Program-made: the position numbers and the translations under genes
Part shown: positions 2,428 to 11,263 of the stretch, one piece after another
How positions within the stretch are numbered: position 1 is the stretch's first letter
Layout: each line of letters starts with the position of its first letter
Notes under the pieces: generated by a model
Database searches by the model: none
Seen by the model: the letters and a program-made list of their open reading frames with translations, nothing else
What the model was told of the DNA's origin: nothing
Origin: Candidatus Marinacidobacterium sp.
Lineage (GTDB): Bacteria; Acidobacteriota; Vicinamibacteria; Marinacidobacterales; Marinacidobacteraceae
Length of the DNA: 64,000 nt
Reading direction: 5' to 3'
Assembly: GCA_965204755.1 (NCBI GenBank)
Contig: OZ242011.1
Coordinates: 1,920,001 to 1,984,000, forward strand

Positions 2428-3408
2428 GTGACTTCGGAATCGCCACTCTCCACCCTGCGGAAAACGAGTGAGAAAATCGCGCGAGACTTCGTGGATCGCC
2501 CGATCGTCTTTCGCGGATACCTCAGCCAAGTGCTCTCTCCCGCTCTGACCGACATACTCGGCCCTGTCAAGGAACAGATCCTCAAGGACTTCCACCGCCC
2601 CGAAGCGACGACTTCCATCACGCACTACACGAGCCTCGCCGCGCTCTTGTCGCTCATCGAGGGCTCGCCGAAGACCGCGAAAGCGAATTCGTTGCGCCTG
2701 TTGCCCACCTATCGCTTCAACGATCCCACGGAGGGGGCGTACTTGCCTCGGGAGATCGCGCGTGTTACTGATCATGACTGGCTCGAGGCCGATGTTGCTC
2801 CGCTCGCTTTCGCTGCCTGTTTCGTAAGTAACGGCAACGAGAACGCCGGTGATGATCTCGTGTACTGGCGCAGTTACGGCAGTGACGGGGAGGGTTGCTC
2901 GATTACTTGGAAGCCGGAGGGTTTGACGAACCTCTATGCCGTCGCGTATTCGGACGGTGTGGAACGCGTCACGAAGCGACTCGAACCGATCCTCGCGGCC
3001 CTCCAGCCCGCGCTCCATGCTCCGGATCCCACCTGCAGCCGTGAGGCGCGACGCGTCCTCGGTCGAACCTTCTGGAAATCACTGACGGAACTCCGCTATC
3101 TCTACAAGAGCGACGCCTATCGGCACGAGCGCGAGTCTCGAGTTCTGATTACGGAGGGAGGCAAGTCCTTCCAGCCGGACCGTGTGGTCTTCGTGCGCAA
3201 GGATGAGCCGGACGGCTATCCCGATCTCTGCCGGTATTATGTCGATCCTTCCCTATCGGCAGAGCGCATCTTCCGTCCCGGAACCCGAATCACCTTGGGC
3301 CCCCAAGTCCGACACGCGCCGGACGCCAAGGCCTACATCGAAAACCGACTCAAGACTCCACTTCTGGCTGAGGTCAGGGTGTCCTCCGTCCCGTACCGAA
3401 CCACTTAG
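2428..3408 (+). CDS. DUF2971 domain protein
   Basis: HYTS, FNDPTEG, ACF, DDLVYWRSYG..G.GCSI and YK..AY.HERESR motifs; lower GC than flanking core genes. Confidence 0.8.
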   Translation: MTSESPLSTLRKTSEKIARDFVDRPIVFRGYLSQVLSPALTDILGPVKEQILKDFHRPEATTSITHYTSLAALLSLIEGSPKTAKANSLRLLPTYRFNDPTEGAYLPREIARVTDHDWLEADVAPLAFAACFVSNGNENAGDDLVYWRSYGSDGEGCSITWKPEGLTNLYAVAYSDGVERVTKRLEPILAALQPALHAPDPTCSREARRVLGRTFWKSLTELRYLYKSDAYRHERESRVLITEGGKSFQPDRVVFVRKDEPDGYPDLCRYYVDPSLSAERIFRPGTRITLGPQVRHAPDAKAYIENRLKTPLLAEVRVSSVPYRTT

Positions 3409-4834
3409 CGAGAGGTCGGATAAGGTTGTCAAAGGACGAGCGCGGCGGTTCGGTCGAGGTGACATAGTGCGGTATTTCACTGTCGCCTCGCGCTCTTCGA
3501 CGACGAAAGGAACAGTGTTCGTGGCAGTCGCCCTTCATAACCCGGGTTTCTCCCGTCACGAACTGGTGTTCCTGCCAGGTCGCATCCGGCCACCAGTCCG
3601 GCGCCAGCAGGTAGCGAAGCCATAGATTGACCTGCATTCCGGCTACTCCGAGGGCGAAGGGAAAGACATTCTCGTTCCGCTTCGACTCCGCGGGGAGGTT
3701 GCGGATGTAAGTGGGGGCGTCCAGCGAACCGTCGAGTTCGGCGACGACCATCCCCGAAGAATATTGCTCGCTGCACCTCAGGCATTGGTGGTGCGGAGTC
3801 ACGATCTGCGTGCGCCAATGGGCCGAGAACAGGCGATCTCGCTTGGGGTCCGTAGCAACGGCCACGCCGCCGTCCACGACGGGGATCAGGTGGGCATTGG
3901 CGATGTAGTTCAACACATCCCGCGCTATGGGACGGTCCACGCAACTGAACAGCACATCGCAGTCCAAGGCGGCGAGGTATCCACGCTTTCGATGTACGGA
4001 CACCGGCAACCGTTCGATTTCGACCTTGGCAGCCGTGGCGTGCCTCCGGAGCCGACGCGCGGCGACATCCACCTTGGCGCGGCCGATGTCGCTCGCCGTC
4101 GCGTGGAGGAGCCGGTCGAGGTTGTGCTCTTCGACGCGGTCCGGGTCGATCAGCGTGATTTTCGCCACCCCGATACGGGCGACGGACTCGGCCACGATCG
4201 AACCGACGCTTCCTGCTCCGATCACACCGACACGCAGTCGAGCGATGGTGTTCTGGACATCGTGGCCCCAAGTATCGAAGGTCCGCCGCAAGAGGTTGCG
4301 ACGACGCGGCGGGGGGAAGGAACGGTCGTTGAAGTAGTAGCGGCACGCTCCTCGGGAGAGGATACGCACCTTGCTGCACCAATTCCGGCGCATGACCGCG
4401 CCATCGCGTTCCCAGAAGCGCGCGCTCCAGTAGCCATCGGCGCCGATCGTCAGGCCCACGAGCGGCAACTTGGTGGCATGGGCGGGGTAGGCGATCACAT
4501 CCCGCTCCGCGACGGTGTCGGCTGGGCTCAGGTCCTGCCATCCGTCGGTCGGATGACTATGCATGAAGGCGAGCCCCATGCCGCGCTGCTGCGCTGTCAG
4601 GAGGGCTCGCGCGAGATAGGCGGGTGTGAAACTCACATTTCCGTGGAGTCGGCGCTCCCCGGAGCGCGGGAGCAGGACCTCGGAGATCAACGCCGTGCGG
4701 CGTACGGCGCCGGTAGCCGGCCGCCACATGGCGAAGCACAGGTCTTCCTGCGCTTCGTCCTTCCGCAGGTGCTGGAGGAGATGGGAGGCGGCCGCCTCGT
4801 CCGCCTCGGCAGTGAGGGCGGCGTCGAAGATCAC
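3374..4834 (-). CDS. JAB/MPN peptidase fused to ThiF/E1-like adenylyltransferase (about 486 aa)
   Basis: N-terminal E...HSHP...SPAD JAB motif; GAGSVGS, LIDPDRVEEHNLDRL, SCVDR and Zn-type CLRC / CHEHC motifs. GTG start at 4834 overlaps the upstream stop (ATGTGA). Confidence 0.88.
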   Translation of the reverse strand: MIFDAALTAEADEAAASHLLQHLRKDEAQEDLCFAMWRPATGAVRRTALISEVLLPRSGERRLHGNVSFTPAYLARALLTAQQRGMGLAFMHSHPTDGWQDLSPADTVAERDVIAYPAHATKLPLVGLTIGADGYWSARFWERDGAVMRRNWCSKVRILSRGACRYYFNDRSFPPPRRRNLLRRTFDTWGHDVQNTIARLRVGVIGAGSVGSIVAESVARIGVAKITLIDPDRVEEHNLDRLLHATASDIGRAKVDVAARRLRRHATAAKVEIERLPVSVHRKRGYLAALDCDVLFSCVDRPIARDVLNYIANAHLIPVVDGGVAVATDPKRDRLFSAHWRTQIVTPHHQCLRCSEQYSSGMVVAELDGSLDAPTYIRNLPAESKRNENVFPFALGVAGMQVNLWLRYLLAPDWWPDATWQEHQFVTGETRVMKGDCHEHCSFRRRRARGDSEIPHYVTSTEPPRSSFDNLIRPLAKWFGTGRRTP

Positions 4835-5223
4835 ATGGCCGCCCAGAGGCGCCGCAGGTGTTCCTTGAAGAAGAGGCTCATGTGCTTGGTGGGGAAGCGG
4901 TCCCACGACGGGCCGGGCGGGCGGCTCATCGCGATCCAGTCGCGGTTCTCGGGATCGGTGTACTTCTGGGTCACGCCTCCCCGTCCGTCGTCCATGGGCG
5001 GGGAGATGTGGACCCAGTGCGGAGGGTATTCGGGATAACCCTCGCTGCCCTGCATGCTCACTCCGATGCGCACCCGGCGACCTTGGTGGGAGCCGGTTGG
5101 GACTTCGTAGTCGAACGATACGACCTCGCCGTGGGGGCTCGCGGAAACCGCGGTCGCGTAGCCGAGCGCCTCGATTTCCTGCCGGATCCGATGGAGGCTG
5201 TAGGACTGAAGACCGTCGGGCAT
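4831..5223 (-). CDS. Prokaryotic E2-like (Prok-E2_E-type) protein, cysteine-free
   Basis: GYPEYPP..., W...SR...W and terminal HL helix pattern; located between the Ubl and JAB-E1 genes. Confidence 0.7.
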   Translation of the reverse strand: MPDGLQSYSLHRIRQEIEALGYATAVSASPHGEVVSFDYEVPTGSHQGRRVRIGVSMQGSEGYPEYPPHWVHISPPMDDGRGGVTQKYTDPENRDWIAMSRPPGPSWDRFPTKHMSLFFKEHLRRLWAAM

Positions 5224-5236
5224 TCTCTTCGTGGGA

Positions 5237-5488
5237 TCAGGCTACGGGAGTGGCCCCGATCGGAATCGTCAGGAAGTGGGAGTCTTCTCTCAGGTCCACG
5301 GTCTCGTCCCAACCGTATCGGCGTTTGTCGCCCTGGAGCCGGTACTGGTCCGGCGGCTCCGGCATCGCGTGGTGTTTTTCGGCCAGTTCGAGGATGTCGT
5401 GAGCGACCGGAGTCGGCGTGCGCATCGTCATTTCGATGCCGTTCACCTTGAGAGTGAACTCTTCGCCGGTAGTCGAGGTAGCGCCCAT
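5237..5488 (-). CDS. Ubiquitin-like (multiubiquitin-type beta-grasp) protein
   Basis: 83 aa with F.LKVNG, ILELA, Y.L and ETVDL...F pattern; first gene of the Ubl-E2-E1 operon. Confidence 0.75.
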   Translation of the reverse strand: MGATSTTGEEFTLKVNGIEMTMRTPTPVAHDILELAEKHHAMPEPPDQYRLQGDKRRYGWDETVDLREDSHFLTIPIGATPVA

Positions 5489-6090: not shown

Positions 6091-6383
6091 ATCGGCGCCG
6101 CCTTCGCCTCCGGCGTCCCCGTCGCCTTCGGCTCCGAAACGATCTTCCCCCACGCCACCGCCGCCCGCGAGTTCGCCGTCATGGTCGGCCTCGGCCTCTC
6201 CCCGGAAAACGCCCTCCGCTCCGCCACCACCGTAGCCGCCCGCGCGCTCGGCCTCGAAGACGAAATCGGCCGCCTCGCCCCCGGCTACGCCGCCGACCTC
6301 ATCGCCGTCGCCGACAACCCCTTGGAGGACATCCGCACGATGGAACGAGTCCTCTTCGTAATGCGCTCCGGCCGCGTCGTGAA
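6091..6383 (+). pseudogene. Direct repeat copy 2: orphan 3' fragment of the amidohydrolase gene
   Basis: About 95% identical to 2031-2323; lacks the 5' ~1 kb; FGSD is changed to FGSE. Confidence 0.9.
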
Positions 6384-6567
6384 GGGGCCGCCTGCTCGGT
6401 GAATGTTGCCGGACTTTCCGGACGCAGTGTGGACGGCGGCGGAGCCGTGAATTCCGCCACCGGCATCGCGTATTCTTCCGCTTCACGCTCTTTGCGAACG
6501 CCCTCGCTCGCATCGCCGGTCATCTGGTGGATGGCGAAGGCACGAGCCCGAACTACCAGAGAGGAAC

Positions 6568-6993
6568 ATGACCTTCGAGACACTTGTGAACCTCGTGATT
6601 GCGATCGCGGTCGTCCAGATCGGTTGGTTGATTTGGTTCACGATCAGCATCACTGAAATGCGCCGATCTCTTCGGACGCTGAGTCATCACGCGATCACAC
6701 GAGAGTTCCGTATCGAGCGGGTCGATCAAGAACAGTTCCGCCTGTTGAACGCTTCGACACCTACTATGTGTGGCGGTTGTAGCCGCGTGCTGGATGATTG
6801 GGTCAGCGAGAAGGAGCAGGTGGTTCGCGCCGTGGCGTATGTTCGGCGTCACGGGATTCCCGCTCGGCTTTGCCTCGAATGTGCGGAGAAAGAACACCGT
6901 GATGTTCTGCGAGAGTGGGATCGGGAGACCGAAGAGGCGGCCGTCGCGAAGTTGCTCGAGGAGTCCGGAATCGGGAAGCGCGACGATTCTTGA
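6568..6993 (+). CDS. Hypothetical protein with N-terminal TM helix and two CxxC motifs
   Basis: GAGG RBS before ATG; hydrophobic residues 6-28; CGGC and CLEC. Confidence 0.65.
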   Translation: MTFETLVNLVIAIAVVQIGWLIWFTISITEMRRSLRTLSHHAITREFRIERVDQEQFRLLNASTPTMCGGCSRVLDDWVSEKEQVVRAVAYVRRHGIPARLCLECAEKEHRDVLREWDRETEEAAVAKLLEESGIGKRDDS

Positions 6994-7048: not shown

Positions 7049-8203
7049 TCAGCGCCGCGCGAATTCCCGGGGCAGGCGGTCGACGCCCCGCGGGGCGGTC
7101 GTCGGCTCGATGATTTCGGCGAGGCTCAGGCCGGCGTCCAACTCCGCTTGGATATCCGGGAGGTCGCTTCCCAGCCGGACCTCCGTCCCTTCCGGGCCGG
7201 GGCTCAGGACGACGACTTCGTCCTTGCCGAGCCCCTCGTCCTCGAGCAGTTCGCGGGAATGCGAGGTCAGGATCACCTGCGGCCCGCCGTGGAACCGCAT
7301 CCGGCTGAGAATCGTCGGCAACAGGCGGACGAGCGACGGGTGGAGATTCGCTTCCGGTGTCTCCATGAGCAGCGGCCCATGCGACTCCCTTCCTTCCAAT
7401 AGCGCCCAGAGGAGTTCGATCAGGCGGAGAGTCCCGTCGGAAAGGTCGCGCTCGGTGTGTCGAGCATCCTCGGCGCGCCAGTGTTCGTACCGGACTCGCA
7501 GGCGACGCCGGCCGACTTCGTCCGTCCCGAGTTCCACTCTCTCGAGTTGTGGAATCGCGATCCCGAGCGCTCGACCGAGACGGCGCAGCCGCGCGGCGCG
7601 GATCCGTTCCGGCGTCCGCGCCATCCGCTGCAGGAAGTCCGCCCGGTCGGAATCGTCGGTCGGGGCCTCCGTTCGTTGCGGGCTGCGGAACCGCCGCGGG
7701 GCCGGATCGAGATACCGGATGGAACGAAAGAACGCCCCGACTTCCCGAAACTCCCGATTCTGGTTGACCTGCTCGAGGGCGGTCTGCGTCATCCCCTCCC
7801 GATCGGATCGGTCCTCCGGGGTGGGTCGCGAAAGGACCTCGCGTCCGTCCAGAGTGACGGACTCGCGCACCACGACCGGACGCCGCCGCCCGCGCGGTTC
7901 GACGCCGAAAGCGAGTTCGTAGGCCGCGGAGCCGCCGCCGTCGCCGAGTTCCGCCCGGATCGTCGAGGGGACGCGGGCGGAGCCGGGGGCGGCGAGACAG
8001 CGCCGCCGGGACGGGCCGCCGCGGTAGCGGACGGCTGCCTGGAACCCGCCGGGCGAGGCGACCTGCCGGAGGAAGCGGAGGGCTTCCAACAGGTTGGACT
8101 TCCCGACCCCGTTCGGCCCCACGACGACCATCCGCTCCTGCAGGGGGAAGTCCGCCCGGCGGAAGTTCATCCAATTCTTCAGCGTGAGACGGGAGAGGCG
8201 CAC
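7049..8203 (-). CDS. AAA_21/RecF-like ABC-type ATPase (about 384 aa)
   Basis: LTLKNWMNF, Walker A GPNGVGKSN, LSDGT signature, ETPEANLHP and ILTSHS motifs. Real start is GTG 8203, not the 1069-aa ORF start. Confidence 0.85.
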   Translation of the reverse strand: MRLSRLTLKNWMNFRRADFPLQERMVVVGPNGVGKSNLLEALRFLRQVASPGGFQAAVRYRGGPSRRRCLAAPGSARVPSTIRAELGDGGGSAAYELAFGVEPRGRRRPVVVRESVTLDGREVLSRPTPEDRSDREGMTQTALEQVNQNREFREVGAFFRSIRYLDPAPRRFRSPQRTEAPTDDSDRADFLQRMARTPERIRAARLRRLGRALGIAIPQLERVELGTDEVGRRRLRVRYEHWRAEDARHTERDLSDGTLRLIELLWALLEGRESHGPLLMETPEANLHPSLVRLLPTILSRMRFHGGPQVILTSHSRELLEDEGLGKDEVVVLSPGPEGTEVRLGSDLPDIQAELDAGLSLAEIIEPTTAPRGVDRLPREFARR

Positions 8204-8365
8204 GCTCCGGAGCCTACGCCGCCGGGGGGCCACCCGCCATCGGCTTGCCGGCCCCGCCTCGGCCCCGTCGCGCGCCCGGTCCGGCGCCCCGGACAAGCGG
8301 TTGCGGCGGCGGAGGCGGGTCTCGTACACTCGGTTCCCCCTACTCGCTGACAGCAAGGAGCCCAC

Positions 8366-11263
8366 ATGCGCAACCGACTTACCCTCGCGGCCTTCGGGGC
8401 CGCGCTCGCTTTTGCCCTGCCCGCCGCGAGTCCGGCGGCCGCCCAGGAACTCCGGGGGCGGCTGGTCGGCACCGTGAGCGACGCCACCGGGGCCGTCCTC
8501 CCCGGGGTGACGGTCATGGCGTCCAGCCCGGCGATGATCCAGGACCAGACCACGGTCACCGGCGGGCAGGGGACCTATGTGTTCCCCGCGCTGCCCACCG
8601 GGGTCTATTCGGTGACCTTCTCGCTCTCCGGGTTCGGCTCGGTCGTCCGGGAAGACATCCAGATGACCCTGAACACCACCCTCACGGTGAACGCCACGCT
8701 CAATGTGGGCGGGGTCGAGGAGGTCATCACGATCACCGGTGAAGCGCCGGTGGTGGATGTGAAGACCACCGCCACCGGCGTGAACTTCACCGAGGAACTC
8801 CTCGAAGACATCCCGAACGCCCGCGACATCTGGGCGGCCATGGCGCAGGCGCCCGGCTTCCAGATGGAGGGCTACGATGTGGGCGGCTCCCATACCGGCA
8901 CGCAGACCGGCTTCCAGGCCTTCGGCTTCGGCGACCAGCACCGGACGCTGCTCGAAGGCATCAATGTGACGGAGACCACCTCCGGCAACGCCGGCTACTT
9001 CGACTACGGGAGTTTCGAGGACTTCCAACTCGGCGGTTCGGGCAACATGGGCGAAACCCACGGCCTCGGCGCCTTCTTCAACCTCACGGTGAAGTCCGGC
9101 GGCGACCGCTTCAACGGCGACATCTATGTGGACTTCGAGAACGACAGCACGGTCGGCGACAATGTGCCGGATTCGCTCCGCACCGGCGGCGGCACCGTAG
9201 GGCCGTACAAGGCCGGCGGCGACGGCCTCCAGGCCGGGAACCCGATCACGCTGCAGAGCGACATCAATGTGGGAATCGGCGGCCCGATCTGGCCCGGCAA
9301 GGCGTGGTTCTACGCGGGCTACCGCCTGAACCACCAGGAGAAGTTGACGATCGGCAACCCCGACCCGGCGACGACCCAGTTGGGCAACTGGACGGGGAAG
9401 GCGACCTACCAGTTGTCCGATTCCAGCCAGTTGATCGGCTTCTTCAACCGGCGCTCCAAACTCCAGGCCGAGCGCGGACTCGGCGGCGATCGGCCGCTCG
9501 ACACGGCGTGGTATCAGGCATCCGTCAACAAGCCGATGAAGATCGAGTACACGAATGTGGTTTCCGACCAGGTGTTCCTCAACTTGCAGGTGAGCCACTG
9601 GATCAACCAGTTCCCGTTGTATCCGACCCAAACGAAGTCCGAAAGCGTGGAAGGCATTTCCGCGGGCCGTCGCGACCAAGGGACCGGCGACTACACGAAC
9701 GCCTACTCCTACTATCACTTCCGCAAGGTCACGAAGCCGCAGTTTTCGGGCAACCTGACCTACTTCGCCGATGATTTGGGCGGGCAGCACACTTTCAAGA
9801 TCGGCACGGAGGTCTACCGGGAGCGTCGGAGTTTCTTGCGCATGCAGCCCGAAGACATCTTCTATTGGGATCGGGACGGCGAAGTCGAGGATGTATCCAT
9901 CTACAACACGCCGAACACCGGCGTGAACGACATCTATCTCACTTCCGCCTATGCGCAGGATGCGTGGACGATCAACGACCGACTCACCCTGAACCTCGGC
10001 CTTCGCTTCGACCGCTACCGCATGGGATGGCCGGACCAGTCCATGTCCCCGACCCACTCCGACATCTTCGCTCCGCTCGAGGTGTCGCAGCGCGATGTCC
10101 TGACCTTCTCGAACATCGGGCCTCGGATCGGCGCCGCCTTCGACTTGACCGGTGAAGGAACGACCGTGCTGAAGTTGTTCGGCGGCCGGTTCTACTGGAA
10201 TCCCAGCACGACGATCGTCGACGACGAGAATCCCGTCGGCCAAGCCGCATTCCGCCACCGCTTCAATGACCTCAACGGCAACCGGATCTTGGATCCCGGG
10301 CCGAGCGGCGGCTTGGCGGACTCACCGGAACTGGGCGAAAAACTGAGCACCTCGGGCGGCGCCGGTTTCGTCACCGTGGACCCGAACCTGACGAACGCCT
10401 ACGGCCACGAAGCCTCGGCGCACTTCGAGCACCAGTTGGCGGACAACTTCTCCTTCCGCGCCTCCTATGTGCACAAGAACTCGCGCAACGGCTACGGCAT
10501 CGTGGACTTGGGCCGGGCGAACGCCTACAACATCCCGTTCACCTACGAAGACCGGGGCGCGGACAATGTGGCCGGTACCGGCGACGACCAGACGATCCAA
10601 CTCGTGGACCGTCCGTCGGGCGTCGATGAGAACCGGATGTATGTGAACCCCGGAGCGCACGGCTTGCCGGCGCCGGACGGGAACTACCACACCATCGAAG
10701 TGGCCCTGAACCGGCGTTTCTCCGACCGCTGGATGTTCCTGACCTCGTTCCTCCACACCTGGGCCAACGCCCACATGCGCACGACCGCCTCGACCAGCGT
10801 GCGCGCCGCCGCCCGTTTCGACTTCGTCGAGGGGACGACCTACGAGTGGCGGCCGAACCAGTCGCTCCGCCTCGGCGCCATCGACACGACCTACTGGAAC
10901 TACAAGATGGTCGGTCGCTACATCTTCCCGTGGGATGTGGGCGTCAGCGCGTCCTACAAACTGCAGAGCGGCTACCAGACGGCTCGCCGGATCAGCGTCC
11001 GGCTGCCGAACGCCGGCACGGAGCGCGTGATGGCCTCGCCGTACGACGAACGCGCCCCCAGCGTCGGCATCTTCGACATGCGCGCCGAGAAGGCGTTCAC
11101 GCTCCCGAAGGGCGTGAATGTGGCCCTGCTGTTCGACGGCTTCAACCTGCTCAACAGTTCGACGGTGCTCAACTACCGCACCATCTCGGGCGGCCGCTAC
11201 AACGAGATCGTCGCCATTCTCGACCCCCGCATCTTCCGCGTAGGCGTCCGGATCGAGTTCTGA
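8366..11263 (+). CDS. TonB-dependent receptor with N-terminal carboxypeptidase-regulatory-like domain
   Basis: Signal peptide, GTVSDATGAVLPGVTV, YAQDAWTINDRLTLNLGLRFD, C-terminal PR...GVRIEF; AAGGAG RBS. Confidence 0.93.
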   Translation: MRNRLTLAAFGAALAFALPAASPAAAQELRGRLVGTVSDATGAVLPGVTVMASSPAMIQDQTTVTGGQGTYVFPALPTGVYSVTFSLSGFGSVVREDIQMTLNTTLTVNATLNVGGVEEVITITGEAPVVDVKTTATGVNFTEELLEDIPNARDIWAAMAQAPGFQMEGYDVGGSHTGTQTGFQAFGFGDQHRTLLEGINVTETTSGNAGYFDYGSFEDFQLGGSGNMGETHGLGAFFNLTVKSGGDRFNGDIYVDFENDSTVGDNVPDSLRTGGGTVGPYKAGGDGLQAGNPITLQSDINVGIGGPIWPGKAWFYAGYRLNHQEKLTIGNPDPATTQLGNWTGKATYQLSDSSQLIGFFNRRSKLQAERGLGGDRPLDTAWYQASVNKPMKIEYTNVVSDQVFLNLQVSHWINQFPLYPTQTKSESVEGISAGRRDQGTGDYTNAYSYYHFRKVTKPQFSGNLTYFADDLGGQHTFKIGTEVYRERRSFLRMQPEDIFYWDRDGEVEDVSIYNTPNTGVNDIYLTSAYAQDAWTINDRLTLNLGLRFDRYRMGWPDQSMSPTHSDIFAPLEVSQRDVLTFSNIGPRIGAAFDLTGEGTTVLKLFGGRFYWNPSTTIVDDENPVGQAAFRHRFNDLNGNRILDPGPSGGLADSPELGEKLSTSGGAGFVTVDPNLTNAYGHEASAHFEHQLADNFSFRASYVHKNSRNGYGIVDLGRANAYNIPFTYEDRGADNVAGTGDDQTIQLVDRPSGVDENRMYVNPGAHGLPAPDGNYHTIEVALNRRFSDRWMFLTSFLHTWANAHMRTTASTSVRAAARFDFVEGTTYEWRPNQSLRLGAIDTTYWNYKMVGRYIFPWDVGVSASYKLQSGYQTARRISVRLPNAGTERVMASPYDERAPSVGIFDMRAEKAFTLPKGVNVALLFDGFNLLNSSTVLNYRTISGGRYNEIVAILDPRIFRVGVRIEF

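Follow-up and report, generated by a model that had tools for sequence, protein, structure and literature searches.

A four-gene bacterial cassette in which a cysteine-free, Bub-like conjugation operon with an alanine-terminated ubiquitin-like protein adjoins a gene for a predicted ADP-ribosyltransferase

A stretch of 64,000 nt from Candidatus Marinacidobacterium sp. (GCA_965204755.1, contig OZ242011.1, positions 1,920,001-1,984,000 of the forward strand), referred to here as the window, contains a compact cassette of four genes. Three genes on the minus strand, in the order Ubl - E2 - (JAB-E1), encode a ubiquitin-like protein (Ubl), a protein resembling ubiquitin-conjugating enzymes (E2), and a JAB peptidase fused to a ubiquitin-activating enzyme (E1). 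A fourth gene converges on them from the plus strand and encodes a DUF2971-like protein with a predicted ADP-ribosyltransferase (ART) fold. The cassette is real and is found in many bacteria, and no description of its combination with the ART-like partner turned up in the literature searched. The genes and features are listed below in window coordinates.

5237-5488, minus strand: Ubl, 83 residues, from the list of open reading frames (ORFs) and the sequence; single domain, putatively of the Multi_ubiq type (β-grasp), ending in TIPIGATPVA; proposed conjugation terminus Ala83
4831-5223, minus strand: E2-like protein, 130 residues, no Cys; predicted UBC fold of the BubB / Prok-E2_E type; proposed catalytic serine S100
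3374-4834, minus strand: JAB/JAMM-ThiF-type E1 fusion, 486 residues; GTG start at 4834 (the open frame itself spans 3374-4906)
2428-3408, plus strand: fourth gene, 326 residues, DUF2971-like with a predicted ART fold (DarT/Tpt1-like), from homology and an AlphaFold2 (AF2) model
3374-3408: 35-nt overlap in which the coding regions of JAB-E1 and the ART-like protein meet tail to tail, from the stop codons
2031-2323, plus strand: left copy of a 293-nt direct repeat, made up of the 3' end of an amidohydrolase gene (1011-2339) that is intact; cassette boundary
6091-6383, plus strand: right-hand copy of the repeat (293 nt, 95% identity with the left-hand one), inside a leftover 3' amidohydrolase fragment (73 residues, ORF 6181-6402)

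Gene organization and the conjugation proteins

The Ubl and E2 genes are separated by an intergenic gap of 13 nt, and the GTG codon of JAB-E1 at 4834 overlaps the TGA stop codon of E2 as GTGA when the DNA is read. In an alignment of 74 sequences, the homologues of JAB-E1 start at the same position. Because of this overlap and the starts of the homologues, the true start of JAB-E1 is almost certainly the GTG at 4834 and not 4906, which gives a protein of 486 residues, and the sequence arrangement indicates that the gene is translationally coupled to that of E2. An earlier reading of this DNA, made from the sequence only, had described three tightly coupled minus-strand genes for an Ubl of 83 residues, an E2-like protein of 130 residues, and a JAB-E1 fusion, and all three are present.

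Related loci were collected by a pattern scan of one genome per species, which gave 93 confirmed stretches; the best 80 of these represent 76 distinct loci. BLASTP on the ORFs of the 76 loci identifies E2 and JAB-E1 in all 76 and the Ubl in 74. The features of the gene trio lie beyond chance, because the E2 has 274 relatives, the Ubl has 61, and the trio recurs in the 76 loci.

The Ubl matches the Pfam family Multi_ubiq (PF14452) with an E value of 5.1e-05 and 23.8 bits, just below the cut-off of 24.5. When the Ubl family profile was compared with the Ubl from a Nocardioides plasmid using hhalign, the probability was 90.8% (E 1.2e-6), and two other VA-ended homologues score above the Multi_ubiq cut-off (Clavibacter, 43.9 bits; Rhodococcus, 25.4 bits). 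The C terminus reads IPIGATPVA, as the sequence-only reading had stated. V82 and A83 are invariant in 61/61 Ubls, and 59 of these proteins stop exactly at VA. The column of the IPIG glycine contains Gly in just 6/61 Ubls and mostly K, A, T, or Q in the others, the preceding column is mostly N, and the 61-Ubl alignment has no other conserved Gly near the end.

Among the 74 Ubls found in the loci, 54 end in VA and 4 end in IA, AA, VS, or VT at the same aligned position. A further 14 carry unrelated tails of 2-9 residues straight after the VA position; of the remaining two, one is fused to the E2 and one is apparently disrupted. The Ubl ORF is therefore separate from the E2 in 73/74 loci with an Ubl. 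Fusions of the two proteins are rare: they occur in locus L005, in P0108, and in about 12 of the 111 cluster representatives obtained as E2 profile matches among 1.84 billion proteins, and in the distant fusions the junction consists of TPV followed by A, S, or T. Because the variable material begins only after a small invariant residue, this position has the look of a processing site and a conjugation terminus. The intact JAB site would be explained as well. In one locus (L001), an extra ORF of the E2/Ubl cluster at 1010-1387 lies between the Ubl (687-998) and the E2 (1883-2260), and it may be a local duplication.

The E2-like protein is free of cysteine, and the W...SR motif with a serine that the sequence-only reading had noticed corresponds to W96...S100-R101. 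A search for E2 relatives yielded 274 proteins at E <= 0.001 among 279 candidates, nearly all of them about 125 residues long. In 106 aligned sequences, the residues H69, W70, D79, W96, S100, R101, W107, and D108 are invariant (S100, R101, and H69 each in 106/106), and the second position after the serine is Pro in 102 sequences. No column of the alignment contains Cys in more than 19% of the sequences, and 60 of the 106 proteins have no Cys at all. The Pfam family Prok-E2_E is matched by 32/106 E2 homologues, with a best E value of 4.1e-07.

The AF2 model of the E2 has a predicted local distance difference test score (pLDDT) of 78.5. Its top match with VIA-align is BubB from Citrobacter (9eae_C; Z 8.6, root mean square deviation (rmsd) 3.8, 116 residues aligned), followed by many canonical E2/UEV domains with Z of 5-8, and the UBC-like fold that had been anticipated for the 130-residue protein is thus seen in the model. 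The E2 sequence S100-R-P-P-G-P-S-W-D parallels S333-R-H-R-S-W-D of C. freundii BubB, and the W-S-R-H core is shared by Oscillatoria BubB. On the basis of the common S-R...S-W-D motif, rather than an inspected superposition, S100 would be the residue equivalent to BubB S333. The catalytic Ser-Arg is kept in the E2, with a His at the position of BubB Asp299 and a Pro at that of BubB His335, and these residues are conserved in the family.

JAB-E1 contains the JAB motif FMHSHP...SPAD followed by a ThiF-type E1 domain (Pfam ThiF, E 9.1e-35). In the numbering of the 486-residue protein, the JAB residues are E30, H92, S93, H94, S103, and D106. The E1 residues are G206 and G211 of the glycine-rich loop together with N238, R241, and D300; two zinc-binding Cys pairs, C351/C354 (CLRC) and C437/C441 (CHEHC), and Y376 of the crossover loop complete the set. 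The closest solved relative is BubCD (9ea4_A), which phmmer matches across both domains (E 1.3e-24). All four zinc Cys are present at 100% in the 74-sequence alignment, where the crossover Tyr is invariant and no column of the crossover contains Cys in 30% or more of the sequences. The stretch LDAPTYI lies between the two Cys pairs and has no Cys; the sequence-only reading was therefore right in finding no Cys there, and the alignment extends this to the absence of a conserved crossover Cys.

The window protein was aligned with four members of its family, the proteins of two actinobacteria (Nocardioides and Clavibacter), and those of Oscillatoria and C. freundii; the crossover Tyr as well as E30, H92, H94, S103, D106, R241, and D300 are invariant in this alignment. 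JAB-E1 is 24-26% identical to the BubCD-type proteins of C. freundii and Oscillatoria and 36-38% identical over its full length to the proteins of Nocardioides and Clavibacter, with up to 43% local identity by tblastn. The PADLOC E1-E2 (Cap2) models match its E1 domain. PADLOC and NCBIfam gave no system-level call, only generic ThiF/Cap2 E1 matches and a weak PDC-S31 match.

The DUF2971-like partner and the distribution of the cassette

The sequence-only reading held that the operon has no target or E3-like gene. This has to be revised, since a DUF2971/ART-fold gene adjoins the operon in 65/76 loci when searched with BLASTP and a hidden Markov model. The gene is convergent with the operon in 52 loci, co-directional and downstream in 9, and rearranged in 4. 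In 44 of the 52 convergent loci the coding regions overlap by 16-50 nt, and the overlap is exactly 35 nt in 27 loci. The pairwise distances of JAB-E1 and the ART-like protein are correlated with r = 0.81 in 60 sequences, and none of 999 permutations reached this value; such a correlation would reflect co-inheritance or linkage, not interaction. Apart from the cassette and from shadow ORFs, all-against-all clustering found no gene family common to more than 11 loci, and the flanks differ.

The ART-like protein of the window matches Pfam DUF2971 (PF11185) with an E value of 0.026 and 16.3 bits, below the 22-bit cut-off. Among its homologues, 19/29 match DUF2971 at E <= 0.01 (best 9.1e-05), and 27 of the 30 nearest clusters in the Protein Atlas are DUF2971. 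The AF2 model has a pLDDT of 91.4. In a comparison with 48,161 chains using VIA-align, it matched the tRNA 2'-phosphotransferase Tpt1 (7yw4) with Z 8.1 and an rmsd of 2.9 over 110 aligned residues. The DarT structures 7omu, 7omv, 7yk3, and 8baq were matched with Z 6.2-6.5 over 127-140 aligned residues, covering residues 58-324, and the ART toxin TreTu was matched with Z 5.1. The list is interspersed with helical-bundle matches to the inserted helices. A search of PDB sequences with the family profile gave nothing meaningful.

Invariant residues in 29 ART-like sequences are H66-Y67-T68, D99, P100, E102, G103, W147, Y150, G151, G156, C157, and Y174, and in the C-terminal part K227, Y231, the E-x-E pair E234 and E236, and R238. 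In the AF2 model, H66 is located in a predicted strand (64-68), and E234/E236 are at the start of the strand 236-242. These residues would fit the catalytic signature of ARTs, with H66 as the motif I His/Arg, Y150 or Y174 as the motif II Tyr, and the E-x-E pair providing the Glu. DUF2971 has been described as a predicted ART related to DarT and AbiGi, with a conserved Tyr and E-x-E (PMC12522546). The fourth protein shares these traits with the DarT/DUF2971 ARTs: its modelled fold matches, its homologues match DUF2971, and the Tyr and E-x-E are conserved. On the strength of the model and the sequence comparisons, it is probably an ADP-ribosyltransferase.

The cassette differs from DarTG in that the partner is a Ubl conjugation module and in that the fourth protein has long helical insertions. 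A DarG-like macrodomain antitoxin was not recognised among the conserved cassette genes, with no search aimed at macro domains. In the literature, no earlier account was found of DUF2971 or an ART joined to a Ubl/E1/E2 operon, of a "Type III Bub", or of sponge-symbiont Ubl systems; the supplementary Table S1 or the journal version of the Bub work could list such an operon.

All 76 loci originate from metagenome-assembled genomes, several of whose record titles name sponge-associated candidate taxa, and the sequencing runs that contain the stretch are labelled sponge or marine metagenome. The E2 is present in 6/41 related genomes, including the window's own, and a genome of the same genus is without it. 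A JAB-E1 tree constructed with FastTree covers 11 phyla and requires 18 changes of phylum, compared with a minimum of 10. The cassette is patchy in uncultured bacteria of 11 phyla and, judged from these sequences, appears to have spread horizontally between phyla. A scan of viral contigs gave 16 pattern matches, none of which was confirmed.

The intact amidohydrolase gene at the left boundary (1011-2339) matches Amidohydro_1 with an E value of 2.5e-46. Similarity to the same-genus genome stops at 2323, exactly where the left repeat ends. The DNA between the two copies of the 293-nt repeat encodes no integrase or transposase. A clean empty site was not found in the same-genus genome; because its DNA beyond 2323 differs, the insertion event itself is not demonstrated.

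Just past the right repeat, an ATPase of the AAA_21/AAA_15 kind is encoded at 7049-8200 on the minus strand (Pfam E 3.6e-28). Defence and toxin-antitoxin modules often include such ATPases. An ORF of 1069 residues at 7049-10258 is mostly a GC-rich artefact over a real outer-membrane β-barrel gene at 8366-11263 on the plus strand. Between the right repeat and the ATPase gene, a 141-residue ORF (6568-6993, plus strand) has an N-terminal hydrophobic stretch and a CxxC...CxxC pattern, with weak, sub-threshold matches to zf-IS66 and DUF4390.

A second, diverged copy of the cassette (L083; G000:C1:2644500-2652500) is situated about 0.72 Mb off in the same genome. Both its E2 (43-46% identity) and its convergent ART-like gene are intact. 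JAB-E1 is divided between two ORFs, which leaves the JAB part broken, and BLASTP detected no Ubl at E <= 1e-3, so that this copy looks like a decaying paralogue.

The neighbours in loci without the ART-like gene include a DNA methylase with a PIN protein, a STAND-like ATPase, a UvrD-PD(D/E)XK protein, and a patatin. Two of these loci (L055 and L065) have co-directional ORFs of 911, 139, and about 771 residues downstream of JAB-E1. The first two ORFs of L055 are the DNA methylase (N6_N4_Mtase) and the PIN protein, and they may be an alternative partner module or a neighbouring defence system.

Relation to the Bub pathways

To our knowledge, no ubiquitin-type cascades other than the Bub pathways have been reported to operate on oxyester intermediates. 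The reference for our comparison is Type I Bub, formerly 6E.1 (Ye, Gong, Chambers, Corbett, bioRxiv 10.1101/2024.11.21.623953; PDB 9ea4, 9ea5, 9eae). According to this preprint, the operon encodes BubAB, a Ubl-E2 fusion cut by the JAB after a conserved Gly, BubCD, a JAB-E1 without a crossover Cys whose catalytic residue is Tyr370, and BubE, which is DUF6527. BubB uses Ser333 with His335 and Asp299, and the changes S333A/H335A in BubB and Y370F in BubCD abolish conjugation in Citrobacter. The preprint also states that "All Bub operons possess bubE" (a serine protease), and the Bub catalogue was assembled from DUF6527-containing operons (10.1101/2024.11.21.623966).

Like Type I Bub, the cassette has a JAB-E1 fusion in which the peptidase and adenylation sites are intact and the crossover carries an invariant Tyr instead of a Cys. 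The modelled UBC-fold E2 without Cys, its invariant Ser-Arg at the catalytic position, the putative Multi_ubiq-type Ubl, and the order Ubl-E2-(JAB-E1) with coupled genes are also common to both. The Bub-like, Cys-free E1/E2/Ubl system that the sequence-only reading had proposed is supported by these results (BubCD, E 1.3e-24; BubB, Z 8.6; invariant crossover Tyr). By sequence and model comparison, the cassette is related to the oxyester pathway of Type I Bub (6E). The earlier reading had left the conservation of the TPVA-like tail and of the E2 serine in homologues to be checked; V82 and A83 are invariant in 61/61 Ubls and S100 in 106/106 E2 sequences. A decayed copy of a Cys/Gly system is rejected, because what the family conserves is a Cys-free system with an Ala end.

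In contrast to Type I Bub, the Ubl of the cassette ends in an invariant Val-Ala instead of Gly. The Ubl and the E2 are separate genes, unlike BubAB, although they are separate in Oscillatoria too. The E2 has His for BubB Asp299 and Pro for BubB His335. A DUF2971/ART-fold gene is present instead of DUF6527/BubE (PF20137). A search for the latter had no match in the window's own genome, a single contig of 3.98 Mb with 89% completeness by markers, or in 5/5 host genomes sampled from the 76 loci, and did match in a control genome. Four features that define Type I Bub are thus missing from the cassette: a Gly at the terminus, a fused Ubl-E2, the accessory Asp and His, and BubE.

To place the cassette among related systems, ten plasmid operons were sampled. 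In the four with an E2 of the D...S-R-H type (C. freundii, Oscillatoria, Mesorhizobium, Acidiphilium), a Gly is present at the Ubl end or junction in 4/4. In the four with an E2 of the PPHW.H...H-S-R-[DE] type (Nocardioides, Clavibacter, Rhodococcus, Mycobacteroides abscessus), the Ubl is VA-ended in 4/4. The remaining two operons (Bradyrhizobium and a haloarchaeon) are more divergent. Since the E2 signature and the Ubl end co-vary in the sampled operons, and given the identity of JAB-E1 to the actinobacterial proteins, the co-occurrence of the Ala terminus and the His-type E2 would define a branch that is sister to canonical Type I Bub. This VA clade would have escaped the Bub catalogue, because the catalogue required DUF6527.

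The actinobacterial plasmid operons resemble the cassette in their VA-ended Ubl, in the PPHW.H and invariant S-R of the E2, and in having no DUF6527 annotated nearby. They differ in that no ART-like gene is annotated nearby, in that the E2 motif is H-S-R-[DE] compared with M-S-R-P-P in the cassette, and in that some of their Ubls have two β-grasp repeats, whereas the Ubl of the cassette is a single domain. No description of these three-gene operons was found in the literature searched.

Type II CBASS (cyclic oligonucleotide-based antiphage signalling system) offers another comparison. Its Cap2/Cap3 is also an E1/E2 system with a JAB peptidase, and Cap2 attaches cGAS proteins through their C-terminal residue, which is Gly or Ala (PMC10097602). 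Unlike the cassette, Cap2 joins E2 and E1 in one protein and uses catalytic cysteines; the "tag" that it conjugates is cGAS itself, and a β-grasp Ubl is absent.

Proposed mechanism and alternative explanations

We propose that the mobile four-gene cassette is a branch of the Bub (6E-type) pathways that has no catalytic cysteines and an alanine-terminated tag, and that it is a horizontally spread conflict or defence system in which the ART-like protein is an effector or a regulated target. We assign this reading a probability of roughly 0.6. By analogy with Bub, the E1 domain would adenylate the Ala83 carboxylate of the 83-residue Ubl, which the invariant crossover-loop Tyr376 would then accept as an oxyester. 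Ser100 of the E2 would be the next acceptor, probably aided by the invariant His69 at the position of BubB Asp299, and the Ubl would be handed from there to a nucleophile on the target. The fused JAB, with its intact metalloprotease site, would trim the extensions after Ala or the fused E2 in some orthologues, and it probably also deconjugates. The DUF2971/DarT-like protein, which takes the place of BubE, would act either as the effector of the tagging module or as a target that the module regulates. The cassette as a whole would be a conflict or defence system spread horizontally among uncultured, largely sponge- or marine-associated bacteria.

Several observations weigh against this reading. 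The E2 of the window has no match among the Pfam, NCBIfam, and PADLOC models. Searches of PDB sequences with the E2 and the Ubl, as single sequences and as profiles, gave chance-level matches only, and the E2 profile found nothing. The assignment of the E2 fold rests on VIA-align, because Foldseek gave no match to the E2 model at E <= 0.001. An hhalign comparison of the E2 profile with C. freundii BubAB is weak (E 0.056); it sets H69 on BubB Asp299. With neither Asp299 nor His335 of BubB retained, activation of the serine may proceed in another way or fail altogether. The β-grasp fold of the Ubl is assigned by sequence comparison, and only 4/61 Ubl homologues match Multi_ubiq at E <= 0.01. As for the partner, the ART-fold matches (Z 5-8) are "middling" by the scale of VIA-align, Foldseek gave no match to the ART-like model at E <= 0.001, and the gene is missing from 11/76 loci. 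We infer the oxyester chemistry from Bub of Citrobacter and E. coli, across an E1 identity of 24-26%. The defence role is deduced from genomic context. The genes on either side differ from locus to locus among the 76, a scan of five ORFs of the window picked up no regulator of the CapH/CapP or WYL kind, and none of the listed runs that contain the stretch is an RNA run.

The terminus of the Ubl can be read in more than one way. The sequence-only reading had left two options, ligation through Ala or trimming by the JAB to the Gly of IPIG. The conservation of VA in 61/61 Ubls speaks for ligation through Ala, which is favoured, and trimming to the IPIG Gly is rejected, as Gly occupies that column in only 6/61 and no conserved Gly is found near the end. 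A precursor from which the JAB removes ATPVA, with conjugation through Gly as in Bub, Bil, and ubiquitin, could draw on the Gly five residues from the end of the window Ubl and on the processing after a conserved Gly shown for Citrobacter BubAB (10.1101/2024.11.21.623953), but the invariance of V82/A83 and the stop at VA in 59/61 Ubls make it extremely improbable. The sequence itself would also allow Ala83 to be a one-residue cap, which the JAB would remove so that conjugation occurs through Val82; V82 is as invariant as A83, and this point counts against Ala83 as the terminus. We know of no E1 that adenylates a C-terminal Val, which counts against the cap. The model for such a cap is Type II BilA, which ends in Gly97-Ala98 and is unreactive until truncated at Gly97, BilC pre-processing it to expose the glycine (10.1101/2023.09.26.559546); the penultimate residue is Gly in BilA but an invariant Val in the Ubl of the cassette. 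A cap should vary, yet the variable tails begin after the Ala, and the substitutes at the Ala position are only small (Ser/Thr), as expected of a residue that enters the adenylation site. With the Cap2 substrates ending in Ala as a precedent (PMC10097602), a cap seems very unlikely, and conjugation through Ala83 is retained as the preferred reading. The E2-like protein could instead be a non-catalytic, RWD-like adaptor, in which case the module would only adenylate the Ubl for another modification or would conjugate it from the E1 directly. Cys-less E2-fold proteins of 6e operons were called likely inactive by Iyer et al. 2006 (PMC1779556), and the loss of BubB Asp299 and His335 would suit such a role. 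We consider it quite unlikely, however, since S100 and R101 occupy the position of the catalytic S333-R of BubB in 106/106 sequences and since H69, D79, W96, W107, and D108 are invariant too, which is more than a scaffold would need; the loss of conjugation in the Citrobacter BubB S333A/H335A and BubCD Y370F mutants (10.1101/2024.11.21.623953) points the same way.

That the ART-like gene is an independent neighbour outside the pathway, for example a solitary toxin or defence gene, would agree with its location on the opposite strand in 52 of 65 loci, with the 11 loci that have none, and with the four VA-type actinobacterial plasmid operons, near which no such gene is annotated. Against this, the association persists in three arrangements and 11 phyla while the flanks differ, the distances correlate (r 0.81, as a sign of linkage and not of interaction), and the decayed second copy in the same genome retains the pairing. 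An independent neighbour is accordingly judged unlikely, and we regard the ART-like protein as part of the cassette. A larger share of doubt concerns the role in defence. The cassette could instead serve symbiosis or stress physiology in sponge-associated bacteria, for example by tagging their own or host proteins: all 76 loci are metagenome-assembled with sponge-associated titles among them, the runs are sponge or marine metagenomes, no relative was confirmed on viral contigs, and the Bub papers leave the biological role open (10.1101/2024.11.21.623953; 10.1101/2024.11.21.623966). The patchy occurrence among close relatives (6/41 genomes) and the apparent spread between phyla are at odds with this, as are the defence-type neighbours. 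In addition, the related plasmid operons are often found beside ImmA/IrrE-HTH pairs, a type of regulator that the Bub preprint links to immune operons (10.1101/2024.11.21.623953). The five scanned ORFs of the window, which include the four cassette proteins, matched no family that points to export, with no signal-peptide prediction made. A role in symbiosis or stress therefore has some plausibility but is doubtful, and a conflict or defence role is preferred.

A more speculative extension, which we consider conceivable but hold only tentatively, is that the ART and the tagging module work in one bacterial pathway, which would link ubiquitin-like conjugation with ADP-ribosylation, and that the clade with VA ends and His-type E2s is a third type of Bub with its own chemistry, which would have reached sponge-associated members of many phyla through transfer. 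In one version, the Ala-linked Ubl, transferred via the Tyr and Ser oxyesters, would switch a DarT-like toxin on or off, the Ubl module playing the part of DarG. In the other version, the ART would modify the Ubl, its C terminus, or its conjugates. Crosstalk between ubiquitin and ADP-ribose is known from SidE-type effectors and DELTEX ligases, and the second version would be a prokaryotic counterpart.

If the proposed reading is correct, the Cys-free design of conjugation is broader than the catalogue defined by DUF6527. The Ala (or Ser/Thr) terminus and the remodelled E2 site would provide a natural comparison for the roles of the terminal residue and of the Asp/His pair, and the ART-fold candidate effector would give a concrete handle on the purpose of Bub-type pathways. 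The VA-type relatives on plasmids of cultured actinobacteria make the chemistry accessible without the uncultured hosts.

These plasmid operons, from Nocardioides, Clavibacter, Rhodococcus, and Mycobacteroides abscessus (L077, L078, L084, and L085), are annotated as multiubiquitin, hypothetical, and ThiF. An ImmA/IrrE family gene is located near three of the four, Clavibacter being the exception, and the Nocardioides operon also has a sigma factor gene nearby. Haloarchaeal plasmids carry distant relatives of JAB-E1 with about 27% identity. On one of them, a Salinirubellus plasmid (L086), the small protein encoded upstream ends in GSGRS and the E2-like protein has 163 residues, and genes for an RNase H-like protein and a helicase follow.

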